64,000 bases of DNA from Nitrospirota bacterium (GTDB taxonomy: Bacteria > Nitrospirota > Thermodesulfovibrionia > UBA6902), in contig JACQZG010000009.1 in the NCBI GenBank assembly GCA_016213935.1, positions 647 to 64,646 on the forward strand. Reading direction: 5' to 3'. Each line of letters begins with the position of its first letter. Position 1 is the stretch's first letter. Shown piece after piece: positions 29,230 through 64,000 of this stretch. The position numbers and the translations under genes are program-made. Below the pieces are notes generated by a model, which had not been told where the DNA came from, did not search any database, and worked only from the letters and a program-made list of their open reading frames with translations.

Positions 29230-30741
29230 ATGTATAACTTTAACAGCCTCAAGTTCAAAATTTCCTTCGTTACTTTTCTCCTTATCTCCATAATAATGTC
29301 GGCAACCACATACAGGGATATCAAGTTGACAGAGCAAAAACTCATCAAAACGCAGCAGGAGAAGACTGTCCTCCTGTCTGACAGGATAGCTCACGGGATA
29401 ATGGTACTGATGCTGAAGAACAGGTGGCAGGAACTTCAGGCCATGATGCAGAATCTTGTAAAGGACAGCAATGAACTTAAGGAGATACGAATATTCCTTC
29501 CCACTGACGGGACAATAGTTGTATCCTCTGAAGAAAAAGAAATCGGGACAAAGATATACGCTGAGGATTTAATAAATTACAATAAAGGGAATTATGAGGA
29601 AGCTTTTTTGATAAATAAAGATGATTCCATTTATGCTTCAAAACTGACGCTTTTAAAAAACGCTCCTGCGTGTTTCAGGTGCCACGGGACAGAAAAGGAT
29701 GTGCTCGGAGTTATGGATGTCGAGCTCTCGCTTTTGAATGTGCATAACGCAATCGATGATTTCACCAAAGAGCATATCACGGATGCGTTTATCGGTTTTA
29801 TCATGTTAATGGGCACATTCCTCTTCTTGGTCGCGATCATGATTGACAGGCCTGTTAACAGGATGGTCAACACCATCAGAAGATTGGAGAAGGGGGATTT
29901 CTCAGCCAGAATGAACATCAGGTCTAAAGACGAGTTCGGGCTTCTCGCGGCCAGCTTTGACAATATGGTCGAGGCGCTTGAATCCGCAAAAAAAGAGCTT
30001 GAGCTTACCCATGAGATCAAGATGGAGAGGGCGGCAAAACTCGCAACTATCGGGGAGGTTGTTGCGGGCATTGCTCATGAGATAAAGAATCCTCTTACCG
30101 GAATAAGCTGCGCGGTGCAGCTTCTGCAGGTGGACATGAGCGAAGATGACAAGAACAGGGATGTCACTGAAAAGATACTGAGCCAGGTAAAGAGGCTTGA
30201 CAGGACAGTGAAAGACCTCCTTAGTTACGCCAAACCGAAGGCGGCAAAGTTTTTGCCTGCCAATATAGGCGAAGTTATTGACAGGGCAGTATTCCTTGTA
30301 TATCCGGAGGCAAAAAAACTTAACGTGAAAATCAATGCAACCGTTGCGCAAGACCTTCCTGATATCGTTATGGATACTGACCAGATGCAGCAGGTTGCGC
30401 TTAATTTGATGATAAACGCTCTGCAGGCTATGCCGGAGGGGGGCATACTGAATGTCAGCGTCTATCAGAAAAAATACAATGAAGTTCGCGATGAGTTGAA
30501 GTCCCCATTAAACTGTGAGAATGTTCTTGTTATGTCTTTTGAAGACACCGGCAAAGGGATCTCACAGGAGGACATGGAATATATTTTTGAGCCCTTTTTT
30601 ACCAGGAAATCAAAAGGGTCGGGGCTCGGGTTGTCCATAACGCAGAAGATCGTCCGTGAGCATGGCGGGGTGATTACATGCAGAAGCGCTCTTGGCAAAG
30701 GTTCTTTTTTTACGATATACTTGCCGATAACAAAGAAATAG
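29230..30741 (+). CDS. Sensor histidine kinase with periplasmic c-type-heme (CXXCH) sensor domain, HAMP, HisKA and HATPase
   Basis: TM1, ~150 aa periplasmic domain containing PACFRCHG, TM2, a HAMP domain, the H-box AHEIKNPLTGIS and the G-boxes GSGLGLSI. The sensor resembles Tll0287-like heme-c PAS-type sensor domains. Confidence 0.8.
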   Translation: MYNFNSLKFKISFVTFLLISIIMSATTYRDIKLTEQKLIKTQQEKTVLLSDRIAHGIMVLMLKNRWQELQAMMQNLVKDSNELKEIRIFLPTDGTIVVSSEEKEIGTKIYAEDLINYNKGNYEEAFLINKDDSIYASKLTLLKNAPACFRCHGTEKDVLGVMDVELSLLNVHNAIDDFTKEHITDAFIGFIMLMGTFLFLVAIMIDRPVNRMVNTIRRLEKGDFSARMNIRSKDEFGLLAASFDNMVEALESAKKELELTHEIKMERAAKLATIGEVVAGIAHEIKNPLTGISCAVQLLQVDMSEDDKNRDVTEKILSQVKRLDRTVKDLLSYAKPKAAKFLPANIGEVIDRAVFLVYPEAKKLNVKINATVAQDLPDIVMDTDQMQQVALNLMINALQAMPEGGILNVSVYQKKYNEVRDELKSPLNCENVLVMSFEDTGKGISQEDMEYIFEPFFTRKSKGSGLGLSITQKIVREHGGVITCRSALGKGSFFTIYLPITKK

Positions 30742-30744
30742 GGG

Positions 30745-32145
30745 GTGGCTGGAGTGCAAAGCGTCAAGATACTTGTTGTTGATGACGAGGAACTCATCAG
30801 ATCCTCAATAAAACAGTACCTCGAAAAAGAGGGGCATGAAGTCCTGACCGAAGGAACGGGAGAGGACGGTCTTAAGACATACAGGGCCGAACTCCCGGAT
30901 ATGGTATTTCTCGACCTTCATATGCCCGGGATAAACGGGATGGAGGTTTTGGAGGCAATTAAAAAAATAAACAAAGATACCGTTGTCATAATAATCACGG
31001 CTCACGGCGCGGTTGAGACAGCGGTATCCGCCATAAAACTCGGAGCGTTTGATTTCATAGAAAAGCCTTTTGAGTTCAGCCGGTTGTCAATTTTAATAAA
31101 AAAGGCCCTTGAAACTGTTGACCTCAAGAAAGAGGTAAATTTTTTACGGGGCGAGCAGCATCAGAAGTACAGGTTTGAAAGCATTATCTGTGAGTCCGAA
31201 ATAATGAAGAATATTATTTCGCTTGCCAAAAAGATAGCGGAAAGCGACGCAAACACGGTTTTAATACAGGGAGAGAGCGGGACCGGCAAGACCCTCATAT
31301 CAAGGGCAATTCATTACCACAGCGCGAGGGCTTCTAAACCTTTTGTCGAGATAACATGCACCGCGTTGCCCGAGACGCTTGTCGAAAGCGAGCTTTTCGG
31401 GTATGAGAAGGGAGCATTCACTGACGCTAAATCGGCAAAGAAGGGGCTTTTTGAACTGGCTGACGGAGGGACAGTCTACCTTGATGAAATAGGCGATATG
31501 AAGCCTTCCACACAGGCCAAGTTCCTTAAAGTTATTGAAGAGAAGGTCTTTATGAGGATCGGCAGCCTGAAAGAGACATCTGTTGATGTCAGGATCATCG
31601 CAACGACAAACAGGAACCTGAGGGAAGAGGTTATGAAGGGCAATTTCAGGGAGGATTTATATTACAGGCTTAATGTAATACCCATGGAGTTTCCCGCCTT
31701 GAGGAACAGAAAGGAAGATATATTGCCTACGGCCATGTATTTTCTTGAAACGATGAGGAAAGAGTGCAGAAGAAATATTACCGGCATCTCCAAAGATGTT
31801 CAGGGCCTTTTTTTAAAATACAACTGGCCCGGCAATATCAGAGAGTTGAAGAATGTTATAGAGAGGGTTTTTATTCTCGGGATCGAAGGGCAGCTTCTAC
31901 CTGAGCATCTTCCCCTTGAAATTGCCGGGGTCGGCAGGGAGGCTCCGGTTTTGGGGTCAGTTCATGATCACGATGAATTCAGGTTCCCTATTTCGGATGA
32001 CGGCATATCCATTGAAGAAGTTGAAAAAGAATTCATTATTCAGGCCCTTCGCATGACCGCAGAGAATCAAACAAAAGCGGCTAAACTTCTCGGCCTTTCA
32101 AGGGATGCCCTCAGGTACAGGATGCAGAAGTTCAAACTTCTTTGA
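30745..32145 (+). CDS. Sigma-54-dependent response regulator (NtrC/AtoC family: REC, AAA+ sigma-54 activator, Fis HTH)
   Basis: REC (ILVVDDEELIR...D at FLDLHMPG), Walker A GESGTGKTL, the GAFTDA motif and a C-terminal HTH (AAKLLGLSRDALRYRMQKF). GTG start; it follows the kinase stop by 3 nt. Confidence 0.9.
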   Translation: MAGVQSVKILVVDDEELIRSSIKQYLEKEGHEVLTEGTGEDGLKTYRAELPDMVFLDLHMPGINGMEVLEAIKKINKDTVVIIITAHGAVETAVSAIKLGAFDFIEKPFEFSRLSILIKKALETVDLKKEVNFLRGEQHQKYRFESIICESEIMKNIISLAKKIAESDANTVLIQGESGTGKTLISRAIHYHSARASKPFVEITCTALPETLVESELFGYEKGAFTDAKSAKKGLFELADGGTVYLDEIGDMKPSTQAKFLKVIEEKVFMRIGSLKETSVDVRIIATTNRNLREEVMKGNFREDLYYRLNVIPMEFPALRNRKEDILPTAMYFLETMRKECRRNITGISKDVQGLFLKYNWPGNIRELKNVIERVFILGIEGQLLPEHLPLEIAGVGREAPVLGSVHDHDEFRFPISDDGISIEEVEKEFIIQALRMTAENQTKAAKLLGLSRDALRYRMQKFKLL

Positions 32146-32174: not shown

Positions 32175-34043
32175 TCACTGGGTTTTTTTTATGTAATTGC
32201 CTATCGCGGCTGCGACAACGTCCTTTCTCAGGGCTGTAAGGTTATGGTCATTAGGGTACAAGGCGAGGCCTTCATCAAGTACTGATTTCGACTTCTCATA
32301 ATAGATAAGGGAATTTTTTGGGTCGATTTCTCCAAGCCTGTAGTAAATCAATCCTTCGAGATTATACGAAGGAAGCCCCGGCCTCCTTATCTTCTCTTTC
32401 GCATTCCATAGCAGGAAACTATTTATAAAATCCATGTTCTCGGCAGGGTTTAAAGCGGCGTTAAGAGCTTTTCTGAACATATAATCAGGTTCAGCCCAGT
32501 TTTTCAAATAGATATTTTTTGTTGCCGGGAGAATTTGAGTTTCATCGAGGGCCTCCCCATTCATAAAGGCTTCTTTGTACTGTCCGTATTTCCTGTAATC
32601 GATAAATGTTTTTACGGTATAGGATGAGAGCCCCAGATAGAGCACTGAGAAGAATATAAGTATTGCCGCAGTCGCCTTGTTTCCGGTGCGAATTTCTTTT
32701 ACTCTCGTTTCATCGGATGTAACCATAAACAGCAGTATTATAAACAGGAGAAAGTGAGAGGCGGATAATTCCAGAGGGTATTCGACCATCGTATGCATGA
32801 GCACAGGGATAAGCAGCATAGCATATGCAAAAGTATTACTTACGCGGCCTGCTTTATACAGCATCTTGAAGATCCCAAACAGCGCGAAACCTAAGGCAAG
32901 CATTCCTGCTATCCCGCATTCGGCCAAAATATTAAAAAACTCATTATGAGGATGGCTTATGAATTCATTGTAAACCATTCCCTTGTACAGGGGATTTTCG
33001 GAGGAGACTTTTGCTTTTTTGTGCATAAAAACACTGCTGAAATTAGAGTATCCGTAGCCGAATAAGGGTTTATCCTTGAACATTTCATATGAGGTTTCGA
33101 AGAGAATCAGGCGTTCGACATAGGAACGCTGTGTTATGTCGGAAAGCCATTTGACTTTTTCCTTGGCGGTGCTGTCAGCGCTTTCAACCAGCCCTTTTGG
33201 GCCTGTCTTTGTGCCTGACACATAAAATCCGCAAGCTGTGCCGATAAAAAATATCATGATCCATATTGCTATATATTTTTTTGTCCGCAGATATGCAGAA
33301 TGGTTGGAAATCAAGAGCGCCAAAATGGCCAGCGCCAATCCTATAAGCCCAATCCTTGAATTGGCAAGGAACAGCCCTCCCGCAAGCGGCATAGCAGAGA
33401 TTAAAAATAGTGCCTTCTTTGCCTTTCCGAACAGTTTAAACCTTTCGGTTGTAATAAGGTGAACGCTTATCGCTATACCTGTAGCCGCCCATGAAGCAAA
33501 GAGGTTCTTCTGCTGGAAAGCGCCGCCGACATCAGGTATATATTTGGTCACTTTTACCATGGCAAGAGCGAAACTGATGCCAAAAGAATGTATAGCGTAG
33601 GAATTGACCAGAGCTTTCAATATGACCATGGTTGATTCAATAACTGCTGACATGAGTATCACTATAAGAACAGTTACTTTTTCTCTCTCACTGAATCTGA
33701 ACTGGTGAAGGCTTAACCATATTATTACTGCGGCAATCACGCGCAGGGATTGAATTATAAATATTTCCCTATTTAGGATTGGATTAAATACGGCTGTAAT
33801 CAGGAGGAGAGATGTGTAGGCTGCGGCATATTTAAAATACGACGGCACGATTAGTGCTTTTCTGCTTGTAACGAATGCAGCTGCAATAAGGATCAATGTG
33901 AAGATGCCTATCCAGACTATATATTCCCGAGGATGCGCAAGGGTGCCCCCCATATTCGGGATGGCAATATGCATAATAACGAGCAGGATAACGGATAACA
34001 CCGTAATCGGTAAATATTCAAACGCCTTTTGTGATTTTGTCAA
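32175..34043 (-). CDS. O-antigen ligase (Wzy_C) family polytopic membrane protein with C-terminal TPR-like soluble domain
   Basis: ~10 TM helices and HPHNEFFNILAE (conserved His of the WaaL/PglL type). The C-terminal ~200 aa are helical and repeat-like. It is a paralog of the upstream gene. Confidence 0.55.
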   Translation of the reverse strand: MTKSQKAFEYLPITVLSVILLVIMHIAIPNMGGTLAHPREYIVWIGIFTLILIAAAFVTSRKALIVPSYFKYAAAYTSLLLITAVFNPILNREIFIIQSLRVIAAVIIWLSLHQFRFSEREKVTVLIVILMSAVIESTMVILKALVNSYAIHSFGISFALAMVKVTKYIPDVGGAFQQKNLFASWAATGIAISVHLITTERFKLFGKAKKALFLISAMPLAGGLFLANSRIGLIGLALAILALLISNHSAYLRTKKYIAIWIMIFFIGTACGFYVSGTKTGPKGLVESADSTAKEKVKWLSDITQRSYVERLILFETSYEMFKDKPLFGYGYSNFSSVFMHKKAKVSSENPLYKGMVYNEFISHPHNEFFNILAECGIAGMLALGFALFGIFKMLYKAGRVSNTFAYAMLLIPVLMHTMVEYPLELSASHFLLFIILLFMVTSDETRVKEIRTGNKATAAILIFFSVLYLGLSSYTVKTFIDYRKYGQYKEAFMNGEALDETQILPATKNIYLKNWAEPDYMFRKALNAALNPAENMDFINSFLLWNAKEKIRRPGLPSYNLEGLIYYRLGEIDPKNSLIYYEKSKSVLDEGLALYPNDHNLTALRKDVVAAAIGNYIKKTQ

Positions 34044-34044
34044 T

Positions 34045-35805
34045 TTATTTAATTTCCTTTGCGTCGGCAGATTTCATCTCTTGTTTTAACTTAACCATAC
34101 TGCTCCAGCCAGGGTAAAGATCCAGCCCTTCCTCAAGAAGTTTATATCCCTCTTCCCTTCTTCCTACGACAAACAAAGCAAATGACCCTCTTTCGTATAC
34201 ATGCGGATGCGGGAACACTTCTTTCTCCTTAATGAGAAAGTCAGCATAGTCTTCTATTAACTTCTTGTCGCCCCTCATAAAACCGATCCTGTAATTGGCA
34301 TCAAAATAAAATCTCTTTGCAAGCTGTTCAAGGTACATATTGCCGGTTGCTGGTTCAACAAGTTCAGGCCTGACAATTCCTATAATAAGCAAGTCCTGAT
34401 ATTTTTTCATGGCTCTCTGGGCAATGAGGGTTGTTATTGACAGATACGATATAATTACAAAGAGCGTGGCGGCCGCAGTAAACGCGCTTGCCCGTAAGAG
34501 TCCGGCTGGTCTAATCTTAATTTTCTTTACAAAAGATGACGACGGCAGGTAAAGCAGAAAGAGAAAGAGCGCCCAGTGGGGCATGGACTGATAAAGGGAA
34601 TAACTCACTTGTGTATCAAATGCTATCGGGAACAAAAAAGCCGCGTAAGTTCCGCCCTGTTTTCTTCCAAGTTTTATAAGGCATACCGTAAAGGCGGCTC
34701 CAATCAGCATCAGCCCGGCACTGCCCATTAGGCCGGACTCTACCGTCCTGTACAAAAACTCGTTATGCGGATGAGAGGTAAAGGCAGCTTCATAGGGATA
34801 TTCAGGGTGTTCTTTTGCAAGCCTGCTTCGGTAATGCATGAACCTGCTGCCGAAACTGCCGGGTCCGTGGCCGGTCAGCGGCCTGTCTTTTATCATGTTT
34901 ACAGCAGTAATGTACATCGGTACCCTCATGTCCGTAACCTCGTCTCCTGCTACACTCTCCATCGTCATCCCGATCTTTTGTCCTACGGAACTGAGCGCCG
35001 AGTCCCGTTTGTAGTAATACTTCTCAGCCGCCACACTGCCTGCTATTCCAAATACTATCATCAGCAACCATATGGCGAGATAGAGCGCCTTCTCTTTGTA
35101 ACTCCGATACCTTGCCCATAAGAGTATAAGTGTTCCGGCGCCGGCCTCTATAACTCCTGCCCGTGAGCCCGTCAGAAAAATGATAAAGCACATGAGCATA
35201 ACAAAAAGATAAAAAAGAGTTTTAAGCCATCTGCCGAATCCCTTAAAAATATCTCCGGTTAAGAGATAAAGCGATATCGCAATCGTGGTAGCAAGGTATG
35301 ATGCAAGTAGGTTCTGGTGCTGGAAATTGCCAAATATTTTGTTCGGGGCAGGCGCGACTATAAGAAATATGGCAGTATCAGGATTAAAATACTGAAACAG
35401 GCTTATCAGTGCCTCAGTCATGCCGGAGATAACTATCGCGTATAAAAGCCGTTCCTTCTCATCATTTGAAAACTCAAACTGATGGAGGGAAGCAAAAAAT
35501 ATTATCCCGCCGATAAGCCCGGCTGTCTCAAATATGAAGACATGACGGTCTATTATCGGATTAAAAATTGCTGACGAAAGCGATGATAAGAGGAATAGAA
35601 TTATATATAAGGAAATGCGCGGGACTGAGATGTCCCATTGATTGAATATATGTATCACTGAAAGAAGTACAAGTCCTGACAGCGTTATCCAGACAAGATA
35701 TGCCGCAGGCAGTACAAGGGGGGCGCCGAAGTTCCTGATGGTTATGTGAGAAACCGCCAGAAAGAGCAGCGCGAGAACCCATAAATGGATTTTCTTTGTC
35801 ATCAA
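34045..35805 (-). CDS. O-antigen ligase (Wzy_C) family polytopic membrane protein with C-terminal soluble domain
   Basis: LTGSRAGVIEAG and HPHNEFLYRTVESG motifs typical of O-antigen ligase/O-oligosaccharyltransferase proteins, plus ~10 TM helices. Confidence 0.6.
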   Translation of the reverse strand: MMTKKIHLWVLALLFLAVSHITIRNFGAPLVLPAAYLVWITLSGLVLLSVIHIFNQWDISVPRISLYIILFLLSSLSSAIFNPIIDRHVFIFETAGLIGGIIFFASLHQFEFSNDEKERLLYAIVISGMTEALISLFQYFNPDTAIFLIVAPAPNKIFGNFQHQNLLASYLATTIAISLYLLTGDIFKGFGRWLKTLFYLFVMLMCFIIFLTGSRAGVIEAGAGTLILLWARYRSYKEKALYLAIWLLMIVFGIAGSVAAEKYYYKRDSALSSVGQKIGMTMESVAGDEVTDMRVPMYITAVNMIKDRPLTGHGPGSFGSRFMHYRSRLAKEHPEYPYEAAFTSHPHNEFLYRTVESGLMGSAGLMLIGAAFTVCLIKLGRKQGGTYAAFLFPIAFDTQVSYSLYQSMPHWALFLFLLYLPSSSFVKKIKIRPAGLLRASAFTAAATLFVIISYLSITTLIAQRAMKKYQDLLIIGIVRPELVEPATGNMYLEQLAKRFYFDANYRIGFMRGDKKLIEDYADFLIKEKEVFPHPHVYERGSFALFVVGRREEGYKLLEEGLDLYPGWSSMVKLKQEMKSADAKEIK

Positions 35806-36140: not shown

Positions 36141-36156
36141 TGGTATGCTAATTGCT
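36141..36156 (+). promoter_or_regulatory. Candidate sigma-54 (-24/-12) promoter upstream of the first OmcS-like gene
   Basis: TGGTATGCTAATTGCT gives GG-N10-GC spacing with the TTGC -12 element, ~150 nt upstream of the ATG at 36304. The sigma-54 activator gene is 4 kb upstream. Confidence 0.5.
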
Positions 36157-36303
36157 TTATAAATAGCCGTGAGGATTAATCAAATGAAAGATAAACAAAA
36201 AATAAATACAGGAGGGTTGCCTATGGAACACAAAACCAAATCCATTTTAGATGGAGAATCAACACTATACTTTATTAAAAGTATAACACCAAAAGGAGGA
36301 ATT

Positions 36304-37299
36304 ATGAAAAAAGTACTGTTCACAATGTTCGTAGTACTTGCGGCCGCGTTCATGCTGTATGGAATCGCAGACGCAATCTCCGGCGTGTGCTCCGGATGCC
36401 ACACAATGCACAACAGTCAGGACGGCGCTGCAGTAAACGGTTCAGGCCCCGCAGACATCCTGCTCAAGAGCGACTGTATGGGCTGTCACACCACAGCGTC
36501 AGCAGTTGGACCGAGGGTTGATAATGCGACCTTGCTGTCAGCAGGCTCATTTGCAGATGCCTTTGTAACATCAGACACAAACACCCACAACGTTGAGGAC
36601 CTCGTAGGATTTAATGCCGGCGGCGCTGACGACATTCTTACCTCTAACGATCCACCGGGAGGAAGCGCGGCTGTTTTAACCAAGTTCTCTGGTGCTAACC
36701 AGTTGAAGTGCGCCGGTAGTAACGGCTGTCACGGTAGCCATGATAGTAAAGCTACAAGCTGGGCAGGCATACAGGGTTATCACCATGCAGGCGGGTCAAT
36801 CTATAAGTTCCTTGAGGTTGCTACTGACAACGAAGGCGCAGGCACCGCTGTTGCAGGCACAAAAGATTCAACCTACGAATCAGGCGGAGCAACCGCATCC
36901 AAACATAATATTTACGTGTCCGACGCGGCAACAGGCATCAGCGCATTCTGCAATAACTGCCATGATGTCTTCCACGGCGCGGCGACCACTGACCTGACCA
37001 CCAACGGCCTTTGGAACCGCCACCCGACCGATATATCAATTGCTACTTACCTTGGGGCTTCGGGTGTAACAGTTGATTATGTGAATAACCCGTTTGCATT
37101 CACAGCGGCATACGCAACCACATTAAGCACAACCTCGGCAACAGGTTATGACGCAACTAATGGTTATGTAATGTGTCTGTCTTGCCATCGCGCACACGCG
37201 TCTGAGTACGCAGACCTGCTCAGGTTTAACTATGCTTCACAGAGCGCAGGCGGCGGCGGTACAACAGGATGTCTCGGATGTCACGTGAATCAGAGGTAA
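36304..37299 (+). CDS. OmcS-like hexaheme c-type cytochrome (nanowire-type), paralog 1
   Basis: Strong RBS (AAAGGAGGAATT-ATG) and a signal peptide (MKKVLFTMFVVLAAAFMLYGIADA). The mature N-terminus [17 protein letters not shown] matches the OmcS CEGCHTMHNS start. C-terminal MCLSCHRAHASEYADLLRFNY matches OmcS NCLSCHRAHASGFDSMTRFN. Heme sites: CSGCH, CMGCH, C-x5-CH (CAGSNGCH), CNNCH, CLSCH, CLGCH. Confidence 0.75.
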   Translation: MKKVLFTMFVVLAAAFMLYGIADAISGVCSGCHTMHNSQDGAAVNGSGPADILLKSDCMGCHTTASAVGPRVDNATLLSAGSFADAFVTSDTNTHNVEDLVGFNAGGADDILTSNDPPGGSAAVLTKFSGANQLKCAGSNGCHGSHDSKATSWAGIQGYHHAGGSIYKFLEVATDNEGAGTAVAGTKDSTYESGGATASKHNIYVSDAATGISAFCNNCHDVFHGAATTDLTTNGLWNRHPTDISIATYLGASGVTVDYVNNPFAFTAAYATTLSTTSATGYDATNGYVMCLSCHRAHASEYADLLRFNYASQSAGGGGTTGCLGCHVNQR

Positions 37300-37308: not shown

Positions 37309-37373
37309 CAAGGGGAACCCGTTGGGGTTCCCCTTGCATCTGAGTGGTTAAGCAACTCTTAACCACTCAGATG
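37309..37373 (+). other. Two consecutive perfect stem-loops between OmcS-like paralogs (terminator/attenuator or RNA processing element)
   Basis: CAAGGGGAACC-cgt-GGTTCCCCTTG, immediately followed by CATCTGAGTGGTTAAG-caact-CTTAACCACTCAGATG (16 bp stem). No clear U-tract follows. Confidence 0.5.
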
Positions 37374-37397
37374 CAAGATACGAAAGCAAGGCATATT

Positions 37398-47521: not shown

Positions 47522-47537
47522 GTCAACAGCTTATCGT

Positions 47538-51926: not shown

Positions 51927-51949
51927 CAGGCTTGGTTTATTGTCATAAT

Positions 51950-53659: not shown

Positions 53660-54043
53660 ATGGCAATGAGTAATAACAAAAAAATTTTAGTTGCTGAAGA
53701 CGAAGAGCTTATCGGTTGGTCGTTAAGAAAGTTTTTTGAGTCTGACGGGTATAGAGTTGATATGGTTCACAGCGGCATTGACGCGCTTAACAGGATTAGA
53801 AATAATGAATATGATATCGTTGTTACAGACCTTTTCATGCCTGGTATGAGCGGGATGGAGGTTCTCTCCAAAATGAAGCAGGACGGCATAACGACCCCTG
53901 TTATAGTGACCTCGGCTTATTTTTCAGAAAAAATCATGTCTGATGTGCTTGATGGGGGAGCTTTCAGATGTATAAATAAGCCATTTAAGCTCGAAGACGT
54001 TCTTGTTGCAATAAAAGATGCTGAAAGAGTAAGCATCAGGTGA
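53660..54043 (+). CDS. Stand-alone response regulator receiver (CheY-like)
   Basis: KILVAEDEEL ... VVTDLFMPGMSGMEV ... TSAY ... KPF; REC domain only. Confidence 0.8.
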   Translation: MAMSNNKKILVAEDEELIGWSLRKFFESDGYRVDMVHSGIDALNRIRNNEYDIVVTDLFMPGMSGMEVLSKMKQDGITTPVIVTSAYFSEKIMSDVLDGGAFRCINKPFKLEDVLVAIKDAERVSIR

Positions 54044-55068: not shown

Positions 55069-55084
55069 TATAGGGGGTGGAAAT

Positions 55085-56161: not shown

Positions 56162-56186
56162 ATTATAAATCTTACATGGAGGTAAC

Positions 56187-57077
56187 ATGGCAACTTCGTC
56201 TGAAACATTAGTAACCACTGCCGGGAATGCACAGGCGGACAGCGATTATATGCATTATGTCGAGGGAGTCGGTCATGTCCCGAGGGATATTTACAAACAT
56301 GTGCTTTCAGACCCTCTCGGTGACTTGCCTCGGTATTCGATTCATATCGTCATCCAGCACTTTCTTATTTTTATAACATTCATCACTCTCGCGGCTACCG
56401 GCCTCCCTCTTCATTTCGGTGACCTGTTCTGGGCGCCGATAATTCTGGCTCCATTAGGCGGCCCTGATTCCGCACGAATTATACACAGGATTTCTGCAGG
56501 GATAATGATAGTGGCTGCTCTCTATCATTTCATCACTATCGCAATCGGGACTTACAGTAAGCTTAAAAAGCACAAATTTAACCTGTTACATAGTCAGATT
56601 CCGACATTGAAGGATTTAAATGACATTAAGCATGATATCAGGTATTTTCTTGGCAAGGAGCAGTACCGCCCCAAGATGGGCAAGTTCATGTATAAACAGA
56701 AGCTGCATTACCTGGCCATAATATGGGGTACATTTGTAATGATAGTTGCAGGGTCAACGCTTTTGTTTCCTGAGGCCATGGCTAAGTTTTGGCCAAATCC
56801 TGAATTTGCCCAGGATCTCGCAAGGCTTATGCACGCGGATGAGGCAATTATGGCTTCAGCTGTGGTTGTATTTTGGCATTGGTCCAATGTGCACTTGGTG
56901 CCCGGCAGATTTCCGCTTCAGTGGACTTTTTTGACAGGCAGAATCACTCGCGAACATCAGATAGAAGAGCATTTTCTTGAATATATCGATAAGCTAAAAG
57001 ATGACCCGAAAGAAAAGGAATATTTAATAAGCGTATTGAAAGAAAAAGGATACAAAACAGAAGGGGGTGAGGTTTAA
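56187..57077 (+). CDS. Membrane di-heme cytochrome b (FdnI/HydC-like, Ni/Fe-hydrogenase b-type cytochrome family), module A
   Basis: Four or five TM helices with conserved His residues (IHIVIQHFLIF, RIIHRISAGIMIVAALYHF, VVFWHWSNVH). Confidence 0.7.
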   Translation: MATSSETLVTTAGNAQADSDYMHYVEGVGHVPRDIYKHVLSDPLGDLPRYSIHIVIQHFLIFITFITLAATGLPLHFGDLFWAPIILAPLGGPDSARIIHRISAGIMIVAALYHFITIAIGTYSKLKKHKFNLLHSQIPTLKDLNDIKHDIRYFLGKEQYRPKMGKFMYKQKLHYLAIIWGTFVMIVAGSTLLFPEAMAKFWPNPEFAQDLARLMHADEAIMASAVVVFWHWSNVHLVPGRFPLQWTFLTGRITREHQIEEHFLEYIDKLKDDPKEKEYLISVLKEKGYKTEGGEV

Positions 57078-57911
57078 TTGTCCGGGAGACCTAAAAGGCT
57101 TAATCATCCAAAAAGTGTTTATGTTGTGGGTTTAGTTTTTAAAATTATAACCCTTACGGTTATCATTGCGGTTTTATATCATCTGACCTTGTCGCATCAT
57201 GGCCCAAACCTTCTGACTCCTTTAAAAACAAAGATCGAGGAAAAGCAGAAGTCGGAAATTATGGAAGAAGTACAACATCTTGAAGAACTCGAAGTCCACA
57301 GGCATTTTCATAATATAGCCCCATTTCCGGAGATGCCTGAAAACCTGAGGCCGGTCTGTTTTATATGCCATTCAGATTACCCTCACAGCAAGAGTAAAAA
57401 GGTCAGGGCGATGTTAAATATGCACACCCAATTTTTCACATGTGAGGCGTGCCATTTAGAAGAAGACCCCGGTCTTAAGGTTGTTTTCAACTGGTATAAT
57501 CCACAGGATGAAAATCCTAAAGGGCCTTTTTTCGGCACGGATTATGACTCTGAAACAGGCAATCTCATAACTGTCACGGATAAATTATCAAAGATATCAG
57601 TTTTTTATAAAAAAGGTGATAAATTAGAATCTACGATTCAGATGCAGGATGCCCCGATCGCGATCGATTACATGAAAATCAGGGATAAACTTACTCCTGA
57701 CCAGCGCGATAATGTCAAAAAGAAATTTCATGTAAGGATCAAACCCAAGGGTCATGAATGCAAAAAATGCCACGACAGAAACAGTATTCTTGATTTTAGG
57801 AAACTCAGCTTTTCAGACAACAGAAGGGTTGACCTTGAGCAATTGAATATCACAGGTATGATTACGAAGTATGAAATGTTTTACCTGCCTAACCTTTTTC
57901 AGGGTGAGTAA
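57078..57911 (+). CDS. TM-anchored triheme c-type cytochrome, module A
   Basis: N-terminal TM helix (VVGLVFKIITLTVIIAVLY), then CFICH, CEACH and CKKCH. It starts 1 nt after the upstream stop. Confidence 0.65.
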   Translation: MSGRPKRLNHPKSVYVVGLVFKIITLTVIIAVLYHLTLSHHGPNLLTPLKTKIEEKQKSEIMEEVQHLEELEVHRHFHNIAPFPEMPENLRPVCFICHSDYPHSKSKKVRAMLNMHTQFFTCEACHLEEDPGLKVVFNWYNPQDENPKGPFFGTDYDSETGNLITVTDKLSKISVFYKKGDKLESTIQMQDAPIAIDYMKIRDKLTPDQRDNVKKKFHVRIKPKGHECKKCHDRNSILDFRKLSFSDNRRVDLEQLNITGMITKYEMFYLPNLFQGE

Positions 57912-58084: not shown

Positions 58085-59005
58085 TTGAGAAACTGTATTA
58101 AGTTTTTATTTTTTATATTCTGTTTGATTGCTGTCAGTTATAACAATGCATTTTCACTGGACTGTGTTAATGCCAGGTTCCTTTTTGACATAAAAGGCGA
58201 TATTGATCAGCCAAGCGATGTTTCCGTAAGCCAGAATGGAGACATCTATTTTGTTGATGGCGTAAATAACCGTATAGTAGCCGTTGATAATTTGGGCCGC
58301 TTTAAATTTACATTTGGCAAGAGGGGATCAGGAAAAGGCGAATTCGACTTGCCTCTGGGTATTGATATTTCTTCTGATGATAAAATTTATATTGCCGATA
58401 CAGGCAATAAGAGGATACAGGTATTTGACCTGGAAGGTAATATATTGACTATGTTCAGCACCGTCCTTGAATCTGACAGAAACACTTCAGAACCTGTAGA
58501 TGTCCTTGTGTCAAAATTTAAGGACTACCTTTATGTTTCTGATAATAATAATCATGAAATTAAGGTGTATGACAGAGGAGGAAGGTTTAAACTTAAATGG
58601 GGAAAATTCGGTGAGGGATACGGCGAGTTCAGATATCCTGCCACCATGTCTGCCAATTCCCTTTCAGAGGTTTTTATTGCGGATGTTATAAATACCAGGG
58701 TTCAAAGGTTTTCTCCCATGGGCGATCACATTAATGATATTGGCGTATGGGGGGTTCACCCGGGTGATTTTTTCAGGCCTAAAGGCGTTTCTGTTTCGAA
58801 AGACGGCTGGGTATTCGTGAGTGACAGCTATATGGGGGTCGTACAGGTCTTTTCATCGGCAGGCAAGTTTGACGGAGTCATATGTGAAAACAATAAAAAG
58901 AAAGTGTTCCGAACTCCGGTAGGCGTTTTTGTAGACAAGGACAGCAGACTCCTCGTTGTTGAAATGAGGGCAAATAAAATTACTGTCCTCAAAATATTGC
59001 AATGA
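58085..59005 (+). CDS. Secreted NHL-repeat beta-propeller protein
   Basis: TTG start and a signal peptide. NHL units (GDIYFVDGVNNRIVAVD, IYIADTGNKRIQVFD, LYVSDNNNHEIKVYD, VFIADVINTRVQRF, VFVSDSYMGVVQVF). Confidence 0.75.
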   Translation: MRNCIKFLFFIFCLIAVSYNNAFSLDCVNARFLFDIKGDIDQPSDVSVSQNGDIYFVDGVNNRIVAVDNLGRFKFTFGKRGSGKGEFDLPLGIDISSDDKIYIADTGNKRIQVFDLEGNILTMFSTVLESDRNTSEPVDVLVSKFKDYLYVSDNNNHEIKVYDRGGRFKLKWGKFGEGYGEFRYPATMSANSLSEVFIADVINTRVQRFSPMGDHINDIGVWGVHPGDFFRPKGVSVSKDGWVFVSDSYMGVVQVFSSAGKFDGVICENNKKKVFRTPVGVFVDKDSRLLVVEMRANKITVLKILQ

Positions 59006-59039: not shown

Positions 59040-61289
59040 ATGCGTTATCTACGCTGTTTAAACGGGTTAGTAATATTTTTTTTTGTTTTTGTTCTGGTTG
59101 CTCCCGATTCATTTGCTCTTGTTGAATCTGCAAGAAGAGATTGTGTCCTTTGCCATATAATGTGGATGGATGATTTCAGGGAGAATAAGGAAACTCTGAT
59201 CGAATGGCAGCCGTCGAATGCACTTAAGAAAGACACACAGGGCGTGGAAAGCTCTGAGGATATATGCTACAGTTGCCATGACGGCTACGTAAGAGATTCA
59301 AGAAACATAACATGGAAATATAACAGACATCCTGTCTTTGTAAAACCTTCCGGCAAGGTTATAGTACCTGATTCTTTTCCCCTGAGCGTCAAGAATGAAA
59401 TTTACTGCGGCACATGTCATTCAGCTCACGGCAAAGGCGCGGCTGCCACGGAAGAACACGCTAAGACATCGCTTTTCAGGGAAGTAAACGTTAATTCCAG
59501 CCTTTGCGAGATGTGCCACCTGGACCAGGCAAATTTCAGAGCATCCAACGGCCATCCAGTTCATTCAAGGGCTATCAAGCTTCCTGATAAACTTTTTGAG
59601 AACGGAGCTGTTTCTGCTTCTGACAAAAATACCGTTATTTGTCAGTCCTGTCATAAAATTCACGGCGCAAAAGGGCAGAAACTTCTTATTGTGGACAATC
59701 AGAACTCTGAATTATGCATAATTTGTCATCAGGAAAAAGAGAGTATATCGGGAACGAAACATGACCTCAGCATCACCCTTCCTGATGTCAAGAACATAAA
59801 GGATAAGTCATTGTCTGAATCCGGCCCGTGCGGGGCATGCCATCTTCCCCATAATGCTGTCGGCAAAAGATTGTGGGCTCGCACAATGGGGAAGGGCAAT
59901 CCGGCTGCACAGATGTGCCTTACATGCCATGACCAGTCTTCCGGCTATAAAATTAAAGGAGTTGGCGAGTTTTCTCATCCTATAGACATAAAACCGGCAT
60001 CAGGAACGCACATTCCTCCGGAATTGCCTCTTTTTTCCTCTGAGGGAGCAAAGACGAAGGATGGGAATGTGCAGTGCTTCACTTGCCATGATATACACAG
60101 ATGGGATCCACAGACTCCTATTAATAAAGGCGGGAAGGACGTGGAAGGCGACTCATCAAACAGTTTTTTAAGAATAAGCAACAGCAGTGGCTCAGGCCTT
60201 TGCATTTTATGCCACGTTGATAAAAAGCAACTGGTTTATTCAGACCATAATCTCGAAGTCACTGCTCCGGAGGAGAAGAATATTCAGGGCGTAAATACCC
60301 GGTCTTCCGGCCCCTGCGGCGCTTGTCATCTTCCGCATAATGCATCTTCATATCGTCTGTGGGCAAGGAATCTTCCCAAAGAAAATATTGCGGGTGAATT
60401 ATGTATCTCGTGCCATAAGAATGAAGGCCCGGCAAAGGATAAACAGTTAGGGAATTATTTTCATCCTGTTAACGTATCTCTCGAAAAATTCAAGATCAGC
60501 ACGGCGCTCCCCTTATTTGATGAAAAAGGAAACAAGACCCAGGACGGAAAGCTTGTATGCATGACATGTCATGACCCCCATGTGTGGAACCCTGACAGTT
60601 CATTATTTATTGAAGAGTATAAATACGCCAATGTCGAGGGAGACGCCACAAACAGCTTTTTACGAAAGCATAATTCGCCTACTTCGGATCTTTGCGAAGC
60701 ATGTCATTTCAAACAGGCTTTTGTTGATGGAACCGATCATGACTTAAATGTTACCGCACCTGATGCAAAAAATCTCCTTGGCCAGACAGTCAAAGAGTCA
60801 GGACAATGCGGGGCCTGCCACCTCGTTCATAACAGCCCTAACAGTTTAAGGTTATGGGCAAGGCCGTATCTGCCGTACATAGAAAAATCGGGTATCATTG
60901 AATCTCTATGCAACAGCTGTCATTCAAAAAATAATATCGCAGGTAATAAGATCCCGGTAATTGCCACGCATCCTGGCGACAAACTGGTTAATAATATAAT
61001 GAGATGTGACCGCGATGACATTGATTACGCCCCATTGTTTGACGTGAAAAGCGGGAACTTTACCAATTACGGCAATATTTCGTGCCCAACATGCCACAAT
61101 GCGCATCAGTGGAGCCCTTTATCAAAGATAAAAGGCATAGGCCAAAACGTGGAGGGCAATGCAACAAATAGTTTTTTAAGGAATGTCAGCTATAGAAACA
61201 TATGTATAGATTGCCACGGTTTTGACGCACTTTTCAGATATAAGTATTTTCATGACCTTGAAGACAGAATTCCTCAAAGGACCCGCTGA
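59040..61289 (+). CDS. 18-heme c-type cytochrome with three internal ~150 aa repeats
   Basis: Signal peptide and 18 CXXCH motifs counted. The block SGPCGACHLPHNA..RLWAR...C(L/I)(T/S)CH occurs three times, and the block ...NSFLR...C..CH...DH(D/N)L(E/N)VTAP(E/D)(E/A)KN also recurs. Confidence 0.8.
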   Translation: MRYLRCLNGLVIFFFVFVLVAPDSFALVESARRDCVLCHIMWMDDFRENKETLIEWQPSNALKKDTQGVESSEDICYSCHDGYVRDSRNITWKYNRHPVFVKPSGKVIVPDSFPLSVKNEIYCGTCHSAHGKGAAATEEHAKTSLFREVNVNSSLCEMCHLDQANFRASNGHPVHSRAIKLPDKLFENGAVSASDKNTVICQSCHKIHGAKGQKLLIVDNQNSELCIICHQEKESISGTKHDLSITLPDVKNIKDKSLSESGPCGACHLPHNAVGKRLWARTMGKGNPAAQMCLTCHDQSSGYKIKGVGEFSHPIDIKPASGTHIPPELPLFSSEGAKTKDGNVQCFTCHDIHRWDPQTPINKGGKDVEGDSSNSFLRISNSSGSGLCILCHVDKKQLVYSDHNLEVTAPEEKNIQGVNTRSSGPCGACHLPHNASSYRLWARNLPKENIAGELCISCHKNEGPAKDKQLGNYFHPVNVSLEKFKISTALPLFDEKGNKTQDGKLVCMTCHDPHVWNPDSSLFIEEYKYANVEGDATNSFLRKHNSPTSDLCEACHFKQAFVDGTDHDLNVTAPDAKNLLGQTVKESGQCGACHLVHNSPNSLRLWARPYLPYIEKSGIIESLCNSCHSKNNIAGNKIPVIATHPGDKLVNNIMRCDRDDIDYAPLFDVKSGNFTNYGNISCPTCHNAHQWSPLSKIKGIGQNVEGNATNSFLRNVSYRNICIDCHGFDALFRYKYFHDLEDRIPQRTR

Positions 61290-61529: not shown

Positions 61530-62582
61530 ATGAGCCTAAAAAGAGCTGCAAGGCTTTATATTGTTGGATTTATTTTTATAGTATTGAATTTCTATCCTTC
61601 CAAGAATCTTTTTTCTGCAGATGTCGGCAACTGTCTCTTGTGCCACAAATATCCTGGCTTAAGCAGGATTGACGAGCAAGGCAAAATGAAACTTCTCTAT
61701 GTTAATGAAGATATTTTCAATATCAGCGTTCACTTAAAAGTTAAATGTGAGGGCTGTCATACTGATATAAAAAAGATTCCCCATGACCCTGTGAATAAAG
61801 TAGACTGCCTGGTTGAATGCCATATTGTTGAACCTTCAAGCGAACAGAAATTCTCTCATAAGGATGTTGATAATTATGTTAAAAAGAGTGTTCATGCCGC
61901 GTTAGACAAGTATGGGATGCCGAAGAAATTCAAAGAGGATCTGCCTACCTGCAAAAATTGCCATGACGAGCCGCTATACAGGCCTCTCTCTTTCTTTAAG
62001 CAGGTGCGTCCAGGTATTTCTGAAGCTGCACTCGGCAGGTGCAGGGTATGTCACAAGAAAGAGGATTTTATTATAAGATTTTATAATCATGTTACCACAA
62101 GATTGCACCGCACCAGAAATCCAATCAATATTGCAGAGGTTTGCGCTAGGTGTCATGATGATCCGTTGTTGGTTGAAAGGCATAATCTGGGCACAAGGGC
62201 GGTTTTTTCATACGGAGAGACCTTTCACGGGAAAGCGGCACGCTTTCTTGATGAAAGAGTGCCGGACTGTCTTGATTGCCATGTTAATACAGGCGAATCT
62301 GTCCATCAAATGCTGAGTCATAAAGATTCTGCCGCGATAACCTATCGGGAAAACAAATATCTGGCATGTTCTAACATTGAATGCCATCCCGGCACGTCGC
62401 AGCAATTCGCCAGTTATAAAGTTCACGCGGAATTTAATCTGGACCAAAGCCCGGTGCAATATTATTTCACCCTCTTTTTCATAATTCTCACAGGGGGCAC
62501 GCTCCTGCCGTTGATGGCGATCATATTTTTGGACTTGATAAGAAGGTTATTCCCGGACGCCGTGATACCAAGGAGAAGATGA
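61530..62582 (+). CDS. Octaheme c-type cytochrome with C-terminal TM anchor, module B (paralog of 55085-56161)
   Basis: Signal peptide. Motifs CLLCHKYPGLSRIDEQGK (paralog: CLMCHKYRFLGRIDEHGK), CEGCH, CLVECH (CX3CH), CKNCH, CRVCH, CARCH, CLDCH, CSNIECH (CX4CH). C-terminal TM helix. Confidence 0.7.
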   Translation: MSLKRAARLYIVGFIFIVLNFYPSKNLFSADVGNCLLCHKYPGLSRIDEQGKMKLLYVNEDIFNISVHLKVKCEGCHTDIKKIPHDPVNKVDCLVECHIVEPSSEQKFSHKDVDNYVKKSVHAALDKYGMPKKFKEDLPTCKNCHDEPLYRPLSFFKQVRPGISEAALGRCRVCHKKEDFIIRFYNHVTTRLHRTRNPINIAEVCARCHDDPLLVERHNLGTRAVFSYGETFHGKAARFLDERVPDCLDCHVNTGESVHQMLSHKDSAAITYRENKYLACSNIECHPGTSQQFASYKVHAEFNLDQSPVQYYFTLFFIILTGGTLLPLMAIIFLDLIRRLFPDAVIPRRR

Positions 62583-62586: not shown

Positions 62587-63420
62587 ATGGAAAAGTATCC
62601 TCTTATAAAAACGATAAACGGGCGCAGGTATTTTTATAGGTTTTCATTGAATCAGAGGGTGCAGCACATAATACTTGCCTTATCAGTAATTATACTCGTG
62701 TTAACCGGAATGCCCCTGAAGTTTCATAATGCTGGCTGGGCTCCTTATCTGTATAAAATATTCGGAGGGATAAAAGCCGCTCCCATTGTGCATAAAGCGG
62801 CAGGCAGCATCCTTCTTATCCTCTTTGCTTATCATATAATTTATCTCGTTTATGTAATTTATAAATATCAAATAGTCCCTTTGAGAGATAAGGAACGGCG
62901 TCTCACTTCGGGCATGATCTTGAAGTTACTCGCGACTCAGCCGCTGGTTCCGAATATGAAAGATGCGAGAGACATAAGGGATCTCATGACATATCTTCTT
63001 TATTTTACAAATAAAAGGCCTGACGGCGATGCTTTTACATGGAAGGAAAAGTTTGATTACTGGGCGCCTTTCTGGGGTATGGTAGTAATTGGGCTGTCAG
63101 GCCTTATAATGTGGAATAAAGTGCTTGCGACAAAGATCGTACCAGGCATTGTCATTAATTTCTCTTTGATTGCTCACAGCGATGAGGCACTTCTTGCGGC
63201 GCTTTTTTTATTCATATGGCATTGGTATAATGTTCATTTTTCAATTTCGGTTTTTCCAATGGGGATGGTCTTTATAACGGGTTATTTGCCCGAAGAGCTG
63301 ATGATTGAGGAACATTATGAATATTATGTCAAAATCATGAAGCAGGCCGGGCTGGACAATGAAATACGCCCTCCGCACGGAGCACATTCAGAACTTTCTA
63401 CAGACGAGGCAGAGAAATAA
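62587..63420 (+). CDS. Membrane di-heme cytochrome b, module B (paralog of 56187-57077)
   Basis: TM helices with His ligands (RVQHIILALSVIIL, IVHKAAGSILLILFAYHIIY, LFIWHWYNVH). Confidence 0.7.
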   Translation: MEKYPLIKTINGRRYFYRFSLNQRVQHIILALSVIILVLTGMPLKFHNAGWAPYLYKIFGGIKAAPIVHKAAGSILLILFAYHIIYLVYVIYKYQIVPLRDKERRLTSGMILKLLATQPLVPNMKDARDIRDLMTYLLYFTNKRPDGDAFTWKEKFDYWAPFWGMVVIGLSGLIMWNKVLATKIVPGIVINFSLIAHSDEALLAALFLFIWHWYNVHFSISVFPMGMVFITGYLPEELMIEEHYEYYVKIMKQAGLDNEIRPPHGAHSELSTDEAEK

Positions 63421-64000
63421 TGAAAAACATTTTTTACAAATTATATGTCGTAGCTTTTATGTGTTTAACGGTGTGGTTCATCGTAATTATCTGGAATGTC
63501 ACTTTTCATCATGTTATTGAAGAATACGAGAACCGTAAAGAGCTTGAAGAAGTCGCAACCATAAAAGAACAGAAAAAACGAGAAGCGGAAAAAACCAAAT
63601 TCGAGAGAATAATACTTCAAAGCGAAGAAAGGGTCAAGCATTATCTTGGTTACAGGGTGATCGAGGAGCAGAGAATCGAAGGCCATTTTCATCATATCGG
63701 TTTTGATATTGGCCCTGACAACAGATCGTACTGCATAAGATGCCATGGGGATATGCCGCATGATAAGGTCAGAGATCTTAGGGCGTTTCTTAATATGCAC
63801 GCATTCTTCATCGCCTGTCAGACATGTCATGTAAAGACCGAAGGAAGAGGCCCCAGAGTTTACAAATGGTACGACAGAAAAACAGGCGAGTTGGTACCAA
63901 GCCCTGTGCTGACATACAGAGCCGGCACGTATAATGCAAAAATTATTCAAATCGAGAACACAGGTGTCGGAGAGCCTCAACGGGTTGACTCACAGGAGCG
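63420..64000 (+). CDS. TM-anchored c-type cytochrome, module B, 3'-partial at window end (paralog of 57078-57911)
   Basis: ATG overlaps the upstream TAA. N-terminal TM helix (LYVVAFMCLTVWFIVIIW), then CIRCHGDMPHDKVRDLRAFLNMHAFFIACQTCH, paralleling CFICHSDYPHSKSKKVRAMLNMHTQFFTCEACH. It is absent from the ORF track because no stop is reached. Confidence 0.65.
   Translation, partial: MKNIFYKLYVVAFMCLTVWFIVIIWNVTFHHVIEEYENRKELEEVATIKEQKKREAEKTKFERIILQSEERVKHYLGYRVIEEQRIEGHFHHIGFDIGPDNRSYCIRCHGDMPHDKVRDLRAFLNMHAFFIACQTCHVKTEGRGPRVYKWYDRKTGELVPSPVLTYRAGTYNAKIIQIENTGVGEPQRVDSQE

Follow-up and report, generated by a model that had tools for sequence, protein, structure and literature searches.

In Geobacter sulfurreducens, the omcS-osc (OmcS-companion) cluster, GSU2504-GSU2493, was reportedly described by Shen et al. 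in 2025 (Cell Chem Biol 32:239). According to papers that cite this work, the osc operon has three OmcS-like genes (omcS, omcT and oscC) and encodes the beta-propeller OscD, which affects filament morphology, the channel-like OscE, OscF and OscG, related to secretion, the peptidyl-prolyl isomerase (PPIase) OscH, related to folding, and the periplasmic cytochromes OscI (GSU2495) and OscJ (GSU2494) (PMC13194489; bioRxiv 10.1101/2025.11.06.686851). In this literature, an eight-gene block, GSU2500-2493, is always found after a GSU2501-type OmcS-like gene, GSU2495 has approximately 70 kDa and 26 hemes, and the published cluster is described as widespread. Here we analyse a locus of this kind in a 64,000-nucleotide stretch of contig JACQZG010000009.1 (assembly GCA_016213935.1), from a groundwater Nitrospirota metagenome-assembled genome (MAG) of Thermodesulfovibrionia type. 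The whole stretch is referred to as the window, and its cytochrome-rich right part, from 36.1 kb onward, as the island.

Two other described systems are close to this locus. The Geobacter cbcBA genes combine a sigma-54 promoter, a response regulator, a diheme cytochrome b and a multiheme cytochrome c with a C-terminal transmembrane (TM) helix, and are activated by the sigma-54 regulator BccR (bioRxiv 10.1101/2021.04.15.440034). The OmcE and OmcS regions typically have a large outer-membrane beta-barrel together with a beta-propeller lipoprotein, and a porin-mounted filament has been proposed as a model (Petersen et al. 2025, bioRxiv 10.1101/2025.10.22.684050). The same work presents the beta-propeller lipoprotein as a hallmark of nanowire clusters and reports OmcE homologs in Nitrospirota. 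Finally, OmcS hits in Thermodesulfovibrionia MAGs have been reported as isolated gene calls only (PMC8478452). In the searchable literature, where Shen et al. 2025 is represented through citing papers, we found no description of a complete OmcS/osc-type cluster in Nitrospirota, nor of the CX5CH heme site, the per-subunit sigma-54 promoters and the CbcBA-like fusion presented below.

The locus likely encodes a complete extracellular electron transfer (EET) pathway, composed of a Geobacter-like OmcS/osc nanowire cluster, quinol oxidases and sigma-54 control. In the proposed pathway, menaquinol would be oxidised at the inner membrane by two CbcBA-like units, paralogs of one another, which both combine an 8-heme cytochrome c, a diheme cytochrome b and an anchored triheme cytochrome c. 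Electrons would then pass to periplasmic multiheme cytochromes, including MtrA-like wires of 26 and 16 hemes, and cross the periplasm to the base of an outer-membrane apparatus. The OmcS-like subunits would be exported by Sec, loaded with heme in the periplasm and handled by a lipoprotein PPIase. The apparatus may be composed of a barrel of around 28 strands, three PelC/LpoB/CsgG-like lipoproteins arranged as a ring or funnel, and beta-propeller lipoproteins, and would secrete and/or anchor the subunits. Outside the cell, these would finally build a heme filament, or at the minimum a layer of cytochromes on the surface.

We observed that every credible gene between position 36169 and the window end is on the + strand, and that neighbours in the map of open reading frames (ORFs) overlap or are separated by short gaps, as a preliminary description of this DNA had claimed. 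The sole long - strand ORF past 36.1 kb (63465-63980) is overlapped by a + strand cytochrome gene starting at 63420. Annotated locus tags include HY809_02680, HY809_02685 and HY809_02700. In terms of heme motifs, 107 CXXCH were counted in + strand reading frames between 29 and 64 kb, with none on the - strand. In a six-frame tally, the count is 107 for 36.1-64 kb and 3 for 1-29.2 kb. The 29 ORFs of the left half have none. The number of heme-c sites rises to approximately 116 once CX3CH, CX4CH and CX5CH variants, a small monoheme ORF and a sensor kinase are added, close to the estimate of about 115 given earlier. The same description reported 13 cytochromes plus three OmcS-like ones. This is an overcount, as there are 13 c-type cytochrome genes in total, with the OmcS-like trio already included and the kinase as an extra. 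Pfam searches agree with its remaining gene calls, which placed a heme-containing sensor kinase, a sigma-54 activator and two O-antigen-ligase-like genes before the island, and two diheme b cytochromes (FdnI-like), beta-propellers, lipoproteins and a chaperone (PPIase) inside it. Intrinsic terminators are not enriched in the window, with 8 found and 16 expected.

Next, the gene order was compared with 52 other loci (L-numbers). A genome scan with one barrel motif/alignment gave 49 loci, all on the Nitrospirota side, being Nitrospirota/Thermodesulfovibrionia MAGs with the exception of one bin labelled Deferribacteres. In tblastn searches with the window proteins, essentially every locus long enough has the order of the block at 36.2-53.2 kb: (one to four OmcS-like genes), NHL, propeller, barrel, three lipoproteins, PPIase, 26-heme cytochrome, 16-heme cytochrome, (OmcS-like), (8-site cytochrome). 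One Thermodesulfovibrionales chromosome (3.58 Mb) keeps the same order. Across approximately 50 species, the cluster invariably includes the barrel, the propeller, the PelC-like lipoproteins, the PPIase and the 26-heme wire. A Desulfobulbaceae MAG has a related cluster in modified form, with a sigma-54 activator, an OmcS-like gene, a multiheme cytochrome, a 696-aa protein, three small proteins, a PPIase and a large cytochrome, and the 696-aa protein is homologous to the barrel (670 columns, hhalign probability of 99.2%). Scattered homologs, which would have spoken against the earlier view of an organised EET locus rather than a scatter of cytochromes, are clearly not what is seen, with the block order kept in 49 Nitrospirota loci. 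That view is borne out by the synteny, the OmcS homology and the pattern of regulators and promoters. The preliminary description had missed the likely identity of the first half with the known omcS/osc nanowire-biogenesis cluster, and the resemblance of the second half to operons of CbcBA-type quinol oxidoreductases.

The conserved block starts with two OmcS-like genes (all features are on the + strand unless stated). The first (HY809_02680, 36304-37299, within the ORF 36169-37299) encodes a hexaheme cytochrome of 331 aa, with five CXXCH and a CX5CH as site 3. The second (HY809_02685, 37344-38609) is part of a heptaheme subfamily, and a third, hexaheme gene is found further downstream (50907-51929). 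Searches with phmmer against the OmcS structure 6ef8 gave E=3e-9 for OmcS-like 1 and E=0.003 for OmcS-like 2, with the alignment covering the N-terminal CHTMHNS and C-terminal CLSCHRAHAS blocks. In a family alignment of 40 sequences, OmcS-like 1 and 3 have six Cys-pair/His heme sites. Site 3 (C-A-G-x-x-G-C-H, residues 136-143 of OmcS-like 1) is a CX5CH invariant in all 40 members, including those from Desulfobacterota, and the matching site of Geobacter OmcS is CSSCH. This site may bear on heme lyase specificity. In the same alignment, no variation is seen at H36, H95, H160/161, H240 and H298, and at least 90% of sequences have H201 and H224. With at least six conserved distal His the number is sufficient, and bis-His ligation is therefore possible in these proteins. 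The subunits are proposed to polymerise.

Some observations weigh against the interpretation as a Geobacter-like nanowire cluster. Two of the three OmcS-like genes of the window look damaged. OmcS-like 2 has 6 sites and lacks the C-terminal motif, while its orthologs have 7 motifs and end in ...GGCFTCHTSK in 13 of the 13 examined. Its 3' end (38500-38609) is an unrelated tail, with a terminator-like hairpin at 38532-38545. As for OmcS-like 3, the preliminary description had already called it interrupted, and an in-frame TAA is indeed present at 51591-51593, inside heme motif 4 (CA-stop-CH). The stop stands for a Glu codon, with the L001 ortholog reading CAECH, and the gene is probably either a pseudogene or the product of a sequencing or assembly error. 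Furthermore, the similarity to OmcS is low, heme site 3 is not a CXXCH and, in Geobacter, OmcS itself but none of its paralogs is known to polymerise. The osc orthology of the non-cytochrome genes is suggested by domain class, order and heme number, not by alignment. Between the OmcS-like genes and the PPIase, the window has six non-cytochrome genes (with an additional NHL propeller, as well as a barrel and a trio of paralogous lipoproteins) and Geobacter has four, so the machinery differs between the two.

A separate case was found in a Thermodesulfobacteriota MAG (L002, 10001-15995), with an OmcS-like gene outside an osc-type context, beside two small cytochromes and ResB/CcsA heme-maturation genes. 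This arrangement indicates that OmcS-like genes alone do not imply the full machinery.

The genes that follow OmcS-like 2 would form the outer-membrane apparatus. The first is a secreted NHL-repeat beta-propeller (38648-39628, Pfam NHL/SBBP), syntenic in at least 41 loci. It is followed by a YVTN/YncE-type beta-propeller lipoprotein (39643-41244, NCBIfam beta_rpt_yvtn 1.4e-50, lipobox IYGC), also syntenic and of the same protein class as OscD. The outer-membrane beta-barrel (41289-43529) has 746 aa and around 28 strands. It ends in a Phe, carries a discoidin-like beta-sandwich insert (residues ~257-420) and matches no family in Pfam or NCBIfam. The insert domain has a V-x-V-T-E-I-E-A-Y-G motif conserved in the family alignment. 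A search with a hidden Markov model of the family returned 1036 cluster representatives with a cut-off of E<=1e-3, and 793 with one of E<=1e-10. This is a large unannotated outer-membrane family, of approximately 800-1000 clusters when grouped at 50% identity. Named members come from Desulfobulbaceae, Thermodesulfobacteriota, Pseudomonadota and Spirochaetota MAGs, with one annotated as “discoidin domain-containing”. Geobacter is not among the 20 distant representatives sampled by name.

Three lipoproteins and the PPIase are encoded after the barrel. The first lipoprotein is small (43535-44164, lipobox TYGC) and was assigned by Pfam to the GNA1162/LpoB/CsgG/PelC-like group (TolB-N-like fold class), with a weak match to PelC (9h80_C, E=0.0086). 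The second (44183-44779) is its paralog, with 32% identity (E=6e-35) and a lipobox. The third (44820-45896) is a two-domain protein, GNA1162/FlgO/CsgG-like in Pfam, where each half matches the small lipoproteins in hhalign, as in a tandem duplication. It has 177 homologs, mainly from Nitrospirota, and is a candidate for a periplasmic ring or channel component of the OscE/F/G class. Lastly, the PPIase (45887-47521, lipobox TYGC) is a lipoprotein with SurA_N and two parvulin stretches (Pfam Rotamase_2 4.7e-28), also syntenic and of the same protein class as OscH.

The two large cytochromes of the block share the same repeat type. The 26-heme cytochrome (47478-49490) has 26 CXXCH in 670 aa, approximately one heme for every 24 residues, with MtrA/DmsE-like repeats, and occupies the position of OscI/GSU2495. 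Exactly 26 CXXCH are found in 34 of its 35 orthologs. The 16-heme cytochrome (49441-50778) is at the position of OscJ/GSU2494, and 32 of 37 orthologs have exactly 16 hemes. In one ortholog (L045 or L051), 41 CXXCH are present in around 1082 aa, an apparent fusion of both proteins. A fused quinol dehydrogenase was also considered for the two cytochromes and rejected. The NrfH-like N-terminal matches were far under the family cut-offs and were judged as generic similarity in heme spacing.

The match of the 26-heme cytochrome to the MtrA chain in an Mtr complex structure (6r2q_A, E=1.6e-14) speaks for a different explanation, an Mtr/Pcc-type conduit in place of a filament. The cytochrome would then thread the barrel, the OmcS-like proteins would be monomeric surface cytochromes in the role of MtrC, and the lipoproteins and PPIase would be involved in assembly only. 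A monomeric state would also agree with the Geobacter OmcS paralogs, most of which are not known to polymerise. We regard such a conduit as improbable. Neither by sequence nor by family does the barrel match MtrB or Pcc porins, and its scores against ushers and TonB-dependent transporters exceed that against MtrB. In the window, neither an MtrB/Pcc-family porin nor an MtrC/OmcA-type surface decaheme lipoprotein was found, which places the locus outside MtrCAB/Pcc. The OmcS homology, on the other side, is significant, and the gene content and order fit the published osc nanowire cluster as citing papers describe it. Both explanations overlap in part, given that a porin-mounted filament is the current OmcS model (bioRxiv 10.1101/2025.10.22.684050). 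Under the OmcS/osc nanowire explanation, which we prefer, the barrel, lipoproteins and propellers would be assembled at the outer membrane as outlined above.

At the end of the conserved block there is an 8-site cytochrome (51950-53230), with 7 CXXCH and a CX4CH. Orthologs with 35-63% identity are found at the same position in L001, L012, L015, L016, L021, L026, L030, L033, L038, L039 and L044-L049. Next, a small ORF with a GTG start (53249-53500) encodes a secreted monoheme cytochrome with a signal peptide, a CLSCH motif and a mature part of around 60 aa. It is located between the conserved block and the second of two promoter-like elements.

Regarding regulation, a sensor histidine kinase (29230-30741; Pfam HAMP, HisKA and HATPase) has two TM segments (7-25 and 187-205), and the periplasmic loop between them carries a CxRCH heme-c motif (C148). 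Kinase orthologs are directly upstream of the cluster in L015, L038, L043 and L051, and the motif is kept in those of L038, L043 and L051. The kinase gene is followed by an NtrC/AtoC-type sigma-54 enhancer-binding response regulator (30745-32145; Pfam Response_reg, Sigma54_activat with E=1e-67, and HTH_8; NCBIfam AtoC/NtrC-like). Its orthologs, with 56-60% identity, are upstream of the cluster in L015, L029, L038, L043 and L051, and a sigma-54 activator has the same location in the Desulfobulbaceae locus L003. In several genomes the kinase and activator (55-60% identity) directly precede the OmcS-like genes, in none of them with the Wzy-like pair that separates them here.

This pair is on the - strand. 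It is composed of a Wzy_C/Wzy_C_2 polytopic membrane protein (32175-34043, Pfam), O-antigen-ligase/O-oligosaccharyltransferase-like with around 10 TM segments, and of a second Wzy_C/Wzy_C_2 protein (34045-35805, Pfam Wzy_C 6.5e-22) with a PglL_A signature for protein-glycosylation ligases (1.2e-6). A search of the 52 other loci gave no homolog of either gene, and at this position the pair is thus peculiar to this genome. As a speculation, it might glycosylate the secreted cytochromes.

Two sigma-54 -24/-12 promoter-like elements occupy the two large intergenic gaps of the island. The first, TGGTATGCTAATTGCT (36141-36156), is approximately 150 nt upstream of the OmcS-like 1 start, and the second, TGGCATATGTTTTGCT (53622-53637), is 38 nt upstream of a receiver gene. 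In the window as a whole, matches to such elements are not above chance (20 versus 31.7 expected), so only a position-specific analysis is informative. Considering all loci, 67 elements fall in 126 kb of intergenic sequence versus 68 in 866 kb of coding sequence. An element within 300 nt upstream was found for 49 of 84 OmcS-like genes, versus 0-2 of 41-49 for each of the other cluster genes. The gap before OmcS-like 3 (50778-50907) has no recognisable element, unlike most orthologous positions elsewhere. As for activator-binding sites, we found no convincing inverted repeats upstream of the two elements. From the placement of the elements before OmcS-like genes, we infer sigma-54 control of each subunit gene on its own, governed by the adjacent two-component system. 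Most likely, this system would sense the periplasmic redox state and turn on the sigma-54 promoters of the subunit genes and of the second operon.

The second block, from 53.6 kb onward, holds the putative quinol oxidases. It starts with a stand-alone response-regulator receiver (53660-54043, Pfam Response_reg 5e-26) and a 7-heme periplasmic cytochrome (54166-55068, from motif count and Pfam). The first CbcBA-like unit follows. It has a CbcA-like cytochrome c with 8 sites (55037-56161; 6 CXXCH and 2 CX3CH) and a predicted C-terminal TM helix, a CbcB-like diheme cytochrome b of FdnI/Ni_hydr_CYTB type (56187-57077; Pfam PF01292 3e-7, NCBIfam formate-DH gamma 1.8e-12, 1kqf_C E=0.0075), and a triheme cytochrome anchored by an N-terminal TM segment (57078-57911, from its motifs). 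In the cytochrome b, His58, His100, His114 and His216 are in or near TM segments. After this unit there is a second NHL beta-propeller (58085-59005, Pfam NHL 3.8e-24) and an 18-heme cytochrome (59040-61289), with segments like domains II/IV of MtrC/MtrF according to motifs and Pfam.

The second unit repeats the first. Its cytochrome c (61530-62582) has 33% identity to the one at 55037-56161 (E=5e-58), with 8 sites and a C-terminal TM helix, and its cytochrome b (62587-63420, Pfam 2e-10) has 30% identity to its paralog (E=3e-36), with His27, His69, His83 and His197. Both b cytochromes have the same His pattern, with a 14-residue spacing in one helix. The last gene (63420-64000) begins at the stop codon of this cytochrome b gene and is paralogous to that of the anchored triheme cytochrome (57078-57911). 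Its translation has a TM segment at the N-terminus, and the CIRCH and CQTCH motifs were lined up by eye with those of the paralog. It is incomplete and runs past the window end, so the island extends beyond 64 kb. NCBIfam holds no model that matches CbcBA-type units. Homologs of the first c/b pair (55037-57077), with 64-69% identity, adjoin the cluster in L038 and L043. Since these are two other Nitrospirota genomes, the two modules have been linked more than once.

Geobacter CbcBA-type units have been characterised as quinol-oxidising exits (bioRxiv 10.1101/2021.04.15.440034), and on this likeness the electron flow would be outward. The sequence does not fix this direction, and the same hardware could work mainly inward or between species, with electrons taken from a syntrophic partner, a mineral or a cathode for sulfate or sulfur respiration, in place of Fe(III)/Mn(IV) reduction. 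Thermodesulfovibrionia are classically sulfate reducers, and OmcS homologs have been reported as highly expressed in methane-oxidising co-cultures with direct interspecies electron exchange. Nonetheless we consider an inward use unlikely, considering the role of the Geobacter units and that Thermodesulfovibrionia genomes with OmcS hits have been tied to subsurface iron reduction, in that case by genomic inference only (PMC8478452). Terminal reductase genes, of which there are none in the window, support neither direction of flow.

In terms of base composition, the mean GC is 46.7% in 1-29.2 kb, 43.8% in 29.2-36.1 kb and 41.3% in 36.1-64 kb. The AT-rich island of the preliminary description is therefore real, but the size of the contrast it gave (approximately 40% versus 65% GC) is wrong. 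Its example lines were unrepresentative, with neighbouring 60-nt lines at 20.7 and 26.4 kb spanning 37-70%. The comparison of flank and island that it proposed separates the two. GC at third codon positions (GC3) is 0.53 in the left flank versus 0.40-0.42 in the island (Mann-Whitney p = 6e-9), the distance in relative synonymous codon usage is 0.26-0.32, beyond the within-flank null maximum of 0.19, and the dinucleotide signature delta* is 70-106 between halves and 30-33 inside each half. In 9 related loci, those with enough flanking sequence, the cluster-minus-flank GC3 is 0.00 +/- 0.04 (GC3 range of 0.38-0.67), versus -0.12 in the window. The four most similar clusters belong to low-GC genomes with an island-like GC3 of 0.38-0.42, at identities of around 50% and with no overall correlation.

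The composition is consistent with an island acquired from a lower-GC Nitrospirota lineage, without being proof of it, and we give this roughly even odds. The earlier suggestion of a possible horizontal acquisition thus fits with the composition offset, absent in the 9 other genomes, but finds no support at the island boundary, where no integrase, transposase or flanking tRNA was detected (29-36 kb, within the window), and stays unproven. A boundary of this kind speaks for another explanation, in which the island would be an ancestral Nitrospirota cluster with no recent transfer, its low GC3 coming from local mutational or expression bias, or from a chimeric contig assembly. The presence of the cluster in 49 Nitrospirota species points in the same direction, along with the GC3 of the kinase, the activator and the first OmcS-like gene, which is intermediate or host-like. 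The identity to the nearest homologs is no higher than approximately 50% and points to no recent donor, which also counts for an ancestral origin. The codon and dinucleotide distances beyond the null, the flat GC3 of the 9 genomes, the low GC3 of the genomes with the four closest clusters and the Wzy-like pair, inserted in this genome only, argue against it. On balance, an ancestral island is a serious possibility, a little short of an even chance.

The left 29 kb of the window are ordinary, with FabD/F/G, PurM/N, LeuB, Asd, two tRNAs, a cAMP signalling trio and ExeA/GspB-like genes. The cAMP set (1366-5069) has a CHASE2-domain adenylate/guanylate cyclase, a class-II cAMP phosphodiesterase and a Crp-family regulator. 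On the - strand (10252-12737), an ExeA-like AAA_22 ATPase with a peptidoglycan-binding domain is found beside T2SSB (GspB-like), a secretin-assembly pair with no secretin gene visible nearby.

The locus places the OmcS hits of Thermodesulfovibrionia in a full conserved cluster with regulator and quinol-oxidase modules, which strengthens the case for these widespread subsurface and groundwater bacteria being electroactive. A broader proposal, which we hold tentatively and think possible rather than likely, is that of a nanowire variant characteristic of the whole class. It would be present in at least 49 species and defined by the CX5CH site, hexa- and heptaheme subunits each with a sigma-54 promoter, a redox-sensing heme-c kinase, a discoidin-insert barrel of around 28 strands and a PelC-like trio. 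In this genome the whole pathway, from the quinol oxidases to the filament, would have been acquired or assembled as one transferable unit of approximately 30 kb. If true, EET capability can move between lineages as one cassette. The Nitrospirota version also lends itself to a comparison with Geobacter, to find the essential osc components, and it gives a testable regulatory hypothesis, where the heme-c sensor kinase may act on the subunit genes via the sigma-54 activator.

When compared with known systems, the locus has several partial matches. With Shewanella MtrCAB it shares the MtrA-like heme-wire repeat of the 26-heme cytochrome and a very large outer-membrane barrel, but this barrel is outside the MtrB family, there is no MtrC, and the wires have 26 and 16 hemes. 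With PelBC/CsgG it shares small TolB-N-like lipoproteins encoded beside an outer-membrane barrel, as PelC forms a periplasmic ring under the PelB barrel. In this case the PelC match is weak (E ~0.01), the cargo would be a heme protein and the ring is putative.

As for the OmcE clusters, they also have a large barrel and a propeller lipoprotein beside the filament subunit gene, with a proposed porin-mounted secretion or anchoring. The window differs in its OmcS-type subunit of 6-7 hemes, in contrast to the tetraheme OmcE, and in the addition of the PelC-like trio, the PPIase and the 26- and 16-heme wires.

The second block is closest to CbcBA (Cbc5). Common features are the sigma-54 promoter (a promoter-like element in the window), the response regulator in the operon, the diheme b of FdnI/hydrogenase-b type, the multiheme c with a C-terminal TM helix and an NtrC-type activator nearby. 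The shared element, receiver and types of b and c indicate the same architecture, a likeness drawn from architecture and not from an alignment to GSU0593/0594. By contrast, the window units have 8 heme sites and not 7, the order is c then b, and there is an extra N-anchored triheme cytochrome, a tandem duplicate and a junction to the nanowire cluster.

Finally, the closest system overall is omcS-osc. In both, OmcS-homologous genes lead and are followed by proteins of the beta-propeller class, candidate channel-like outer-membrane and lipoprotein parts, a PPIase, and a 26-heme plus a second large periplasmic cytochrome, with co-oriented genes and duplicated OmcS-like paralogs. The window differs in being from Nitrospirota and not Desulfobacterota, in the invariant CX5CH at site 3 and in its hexaheme and heptaheme subfamilies. 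It also has an extra OmcS-like gene and an 8-site cytochrome after the 16-heme gene, and sigma-54-like elements at individual OmcS-like genes. The kind of system is already known from Geobacter, and the window is a well-organised new example of it from Nitrospirota.

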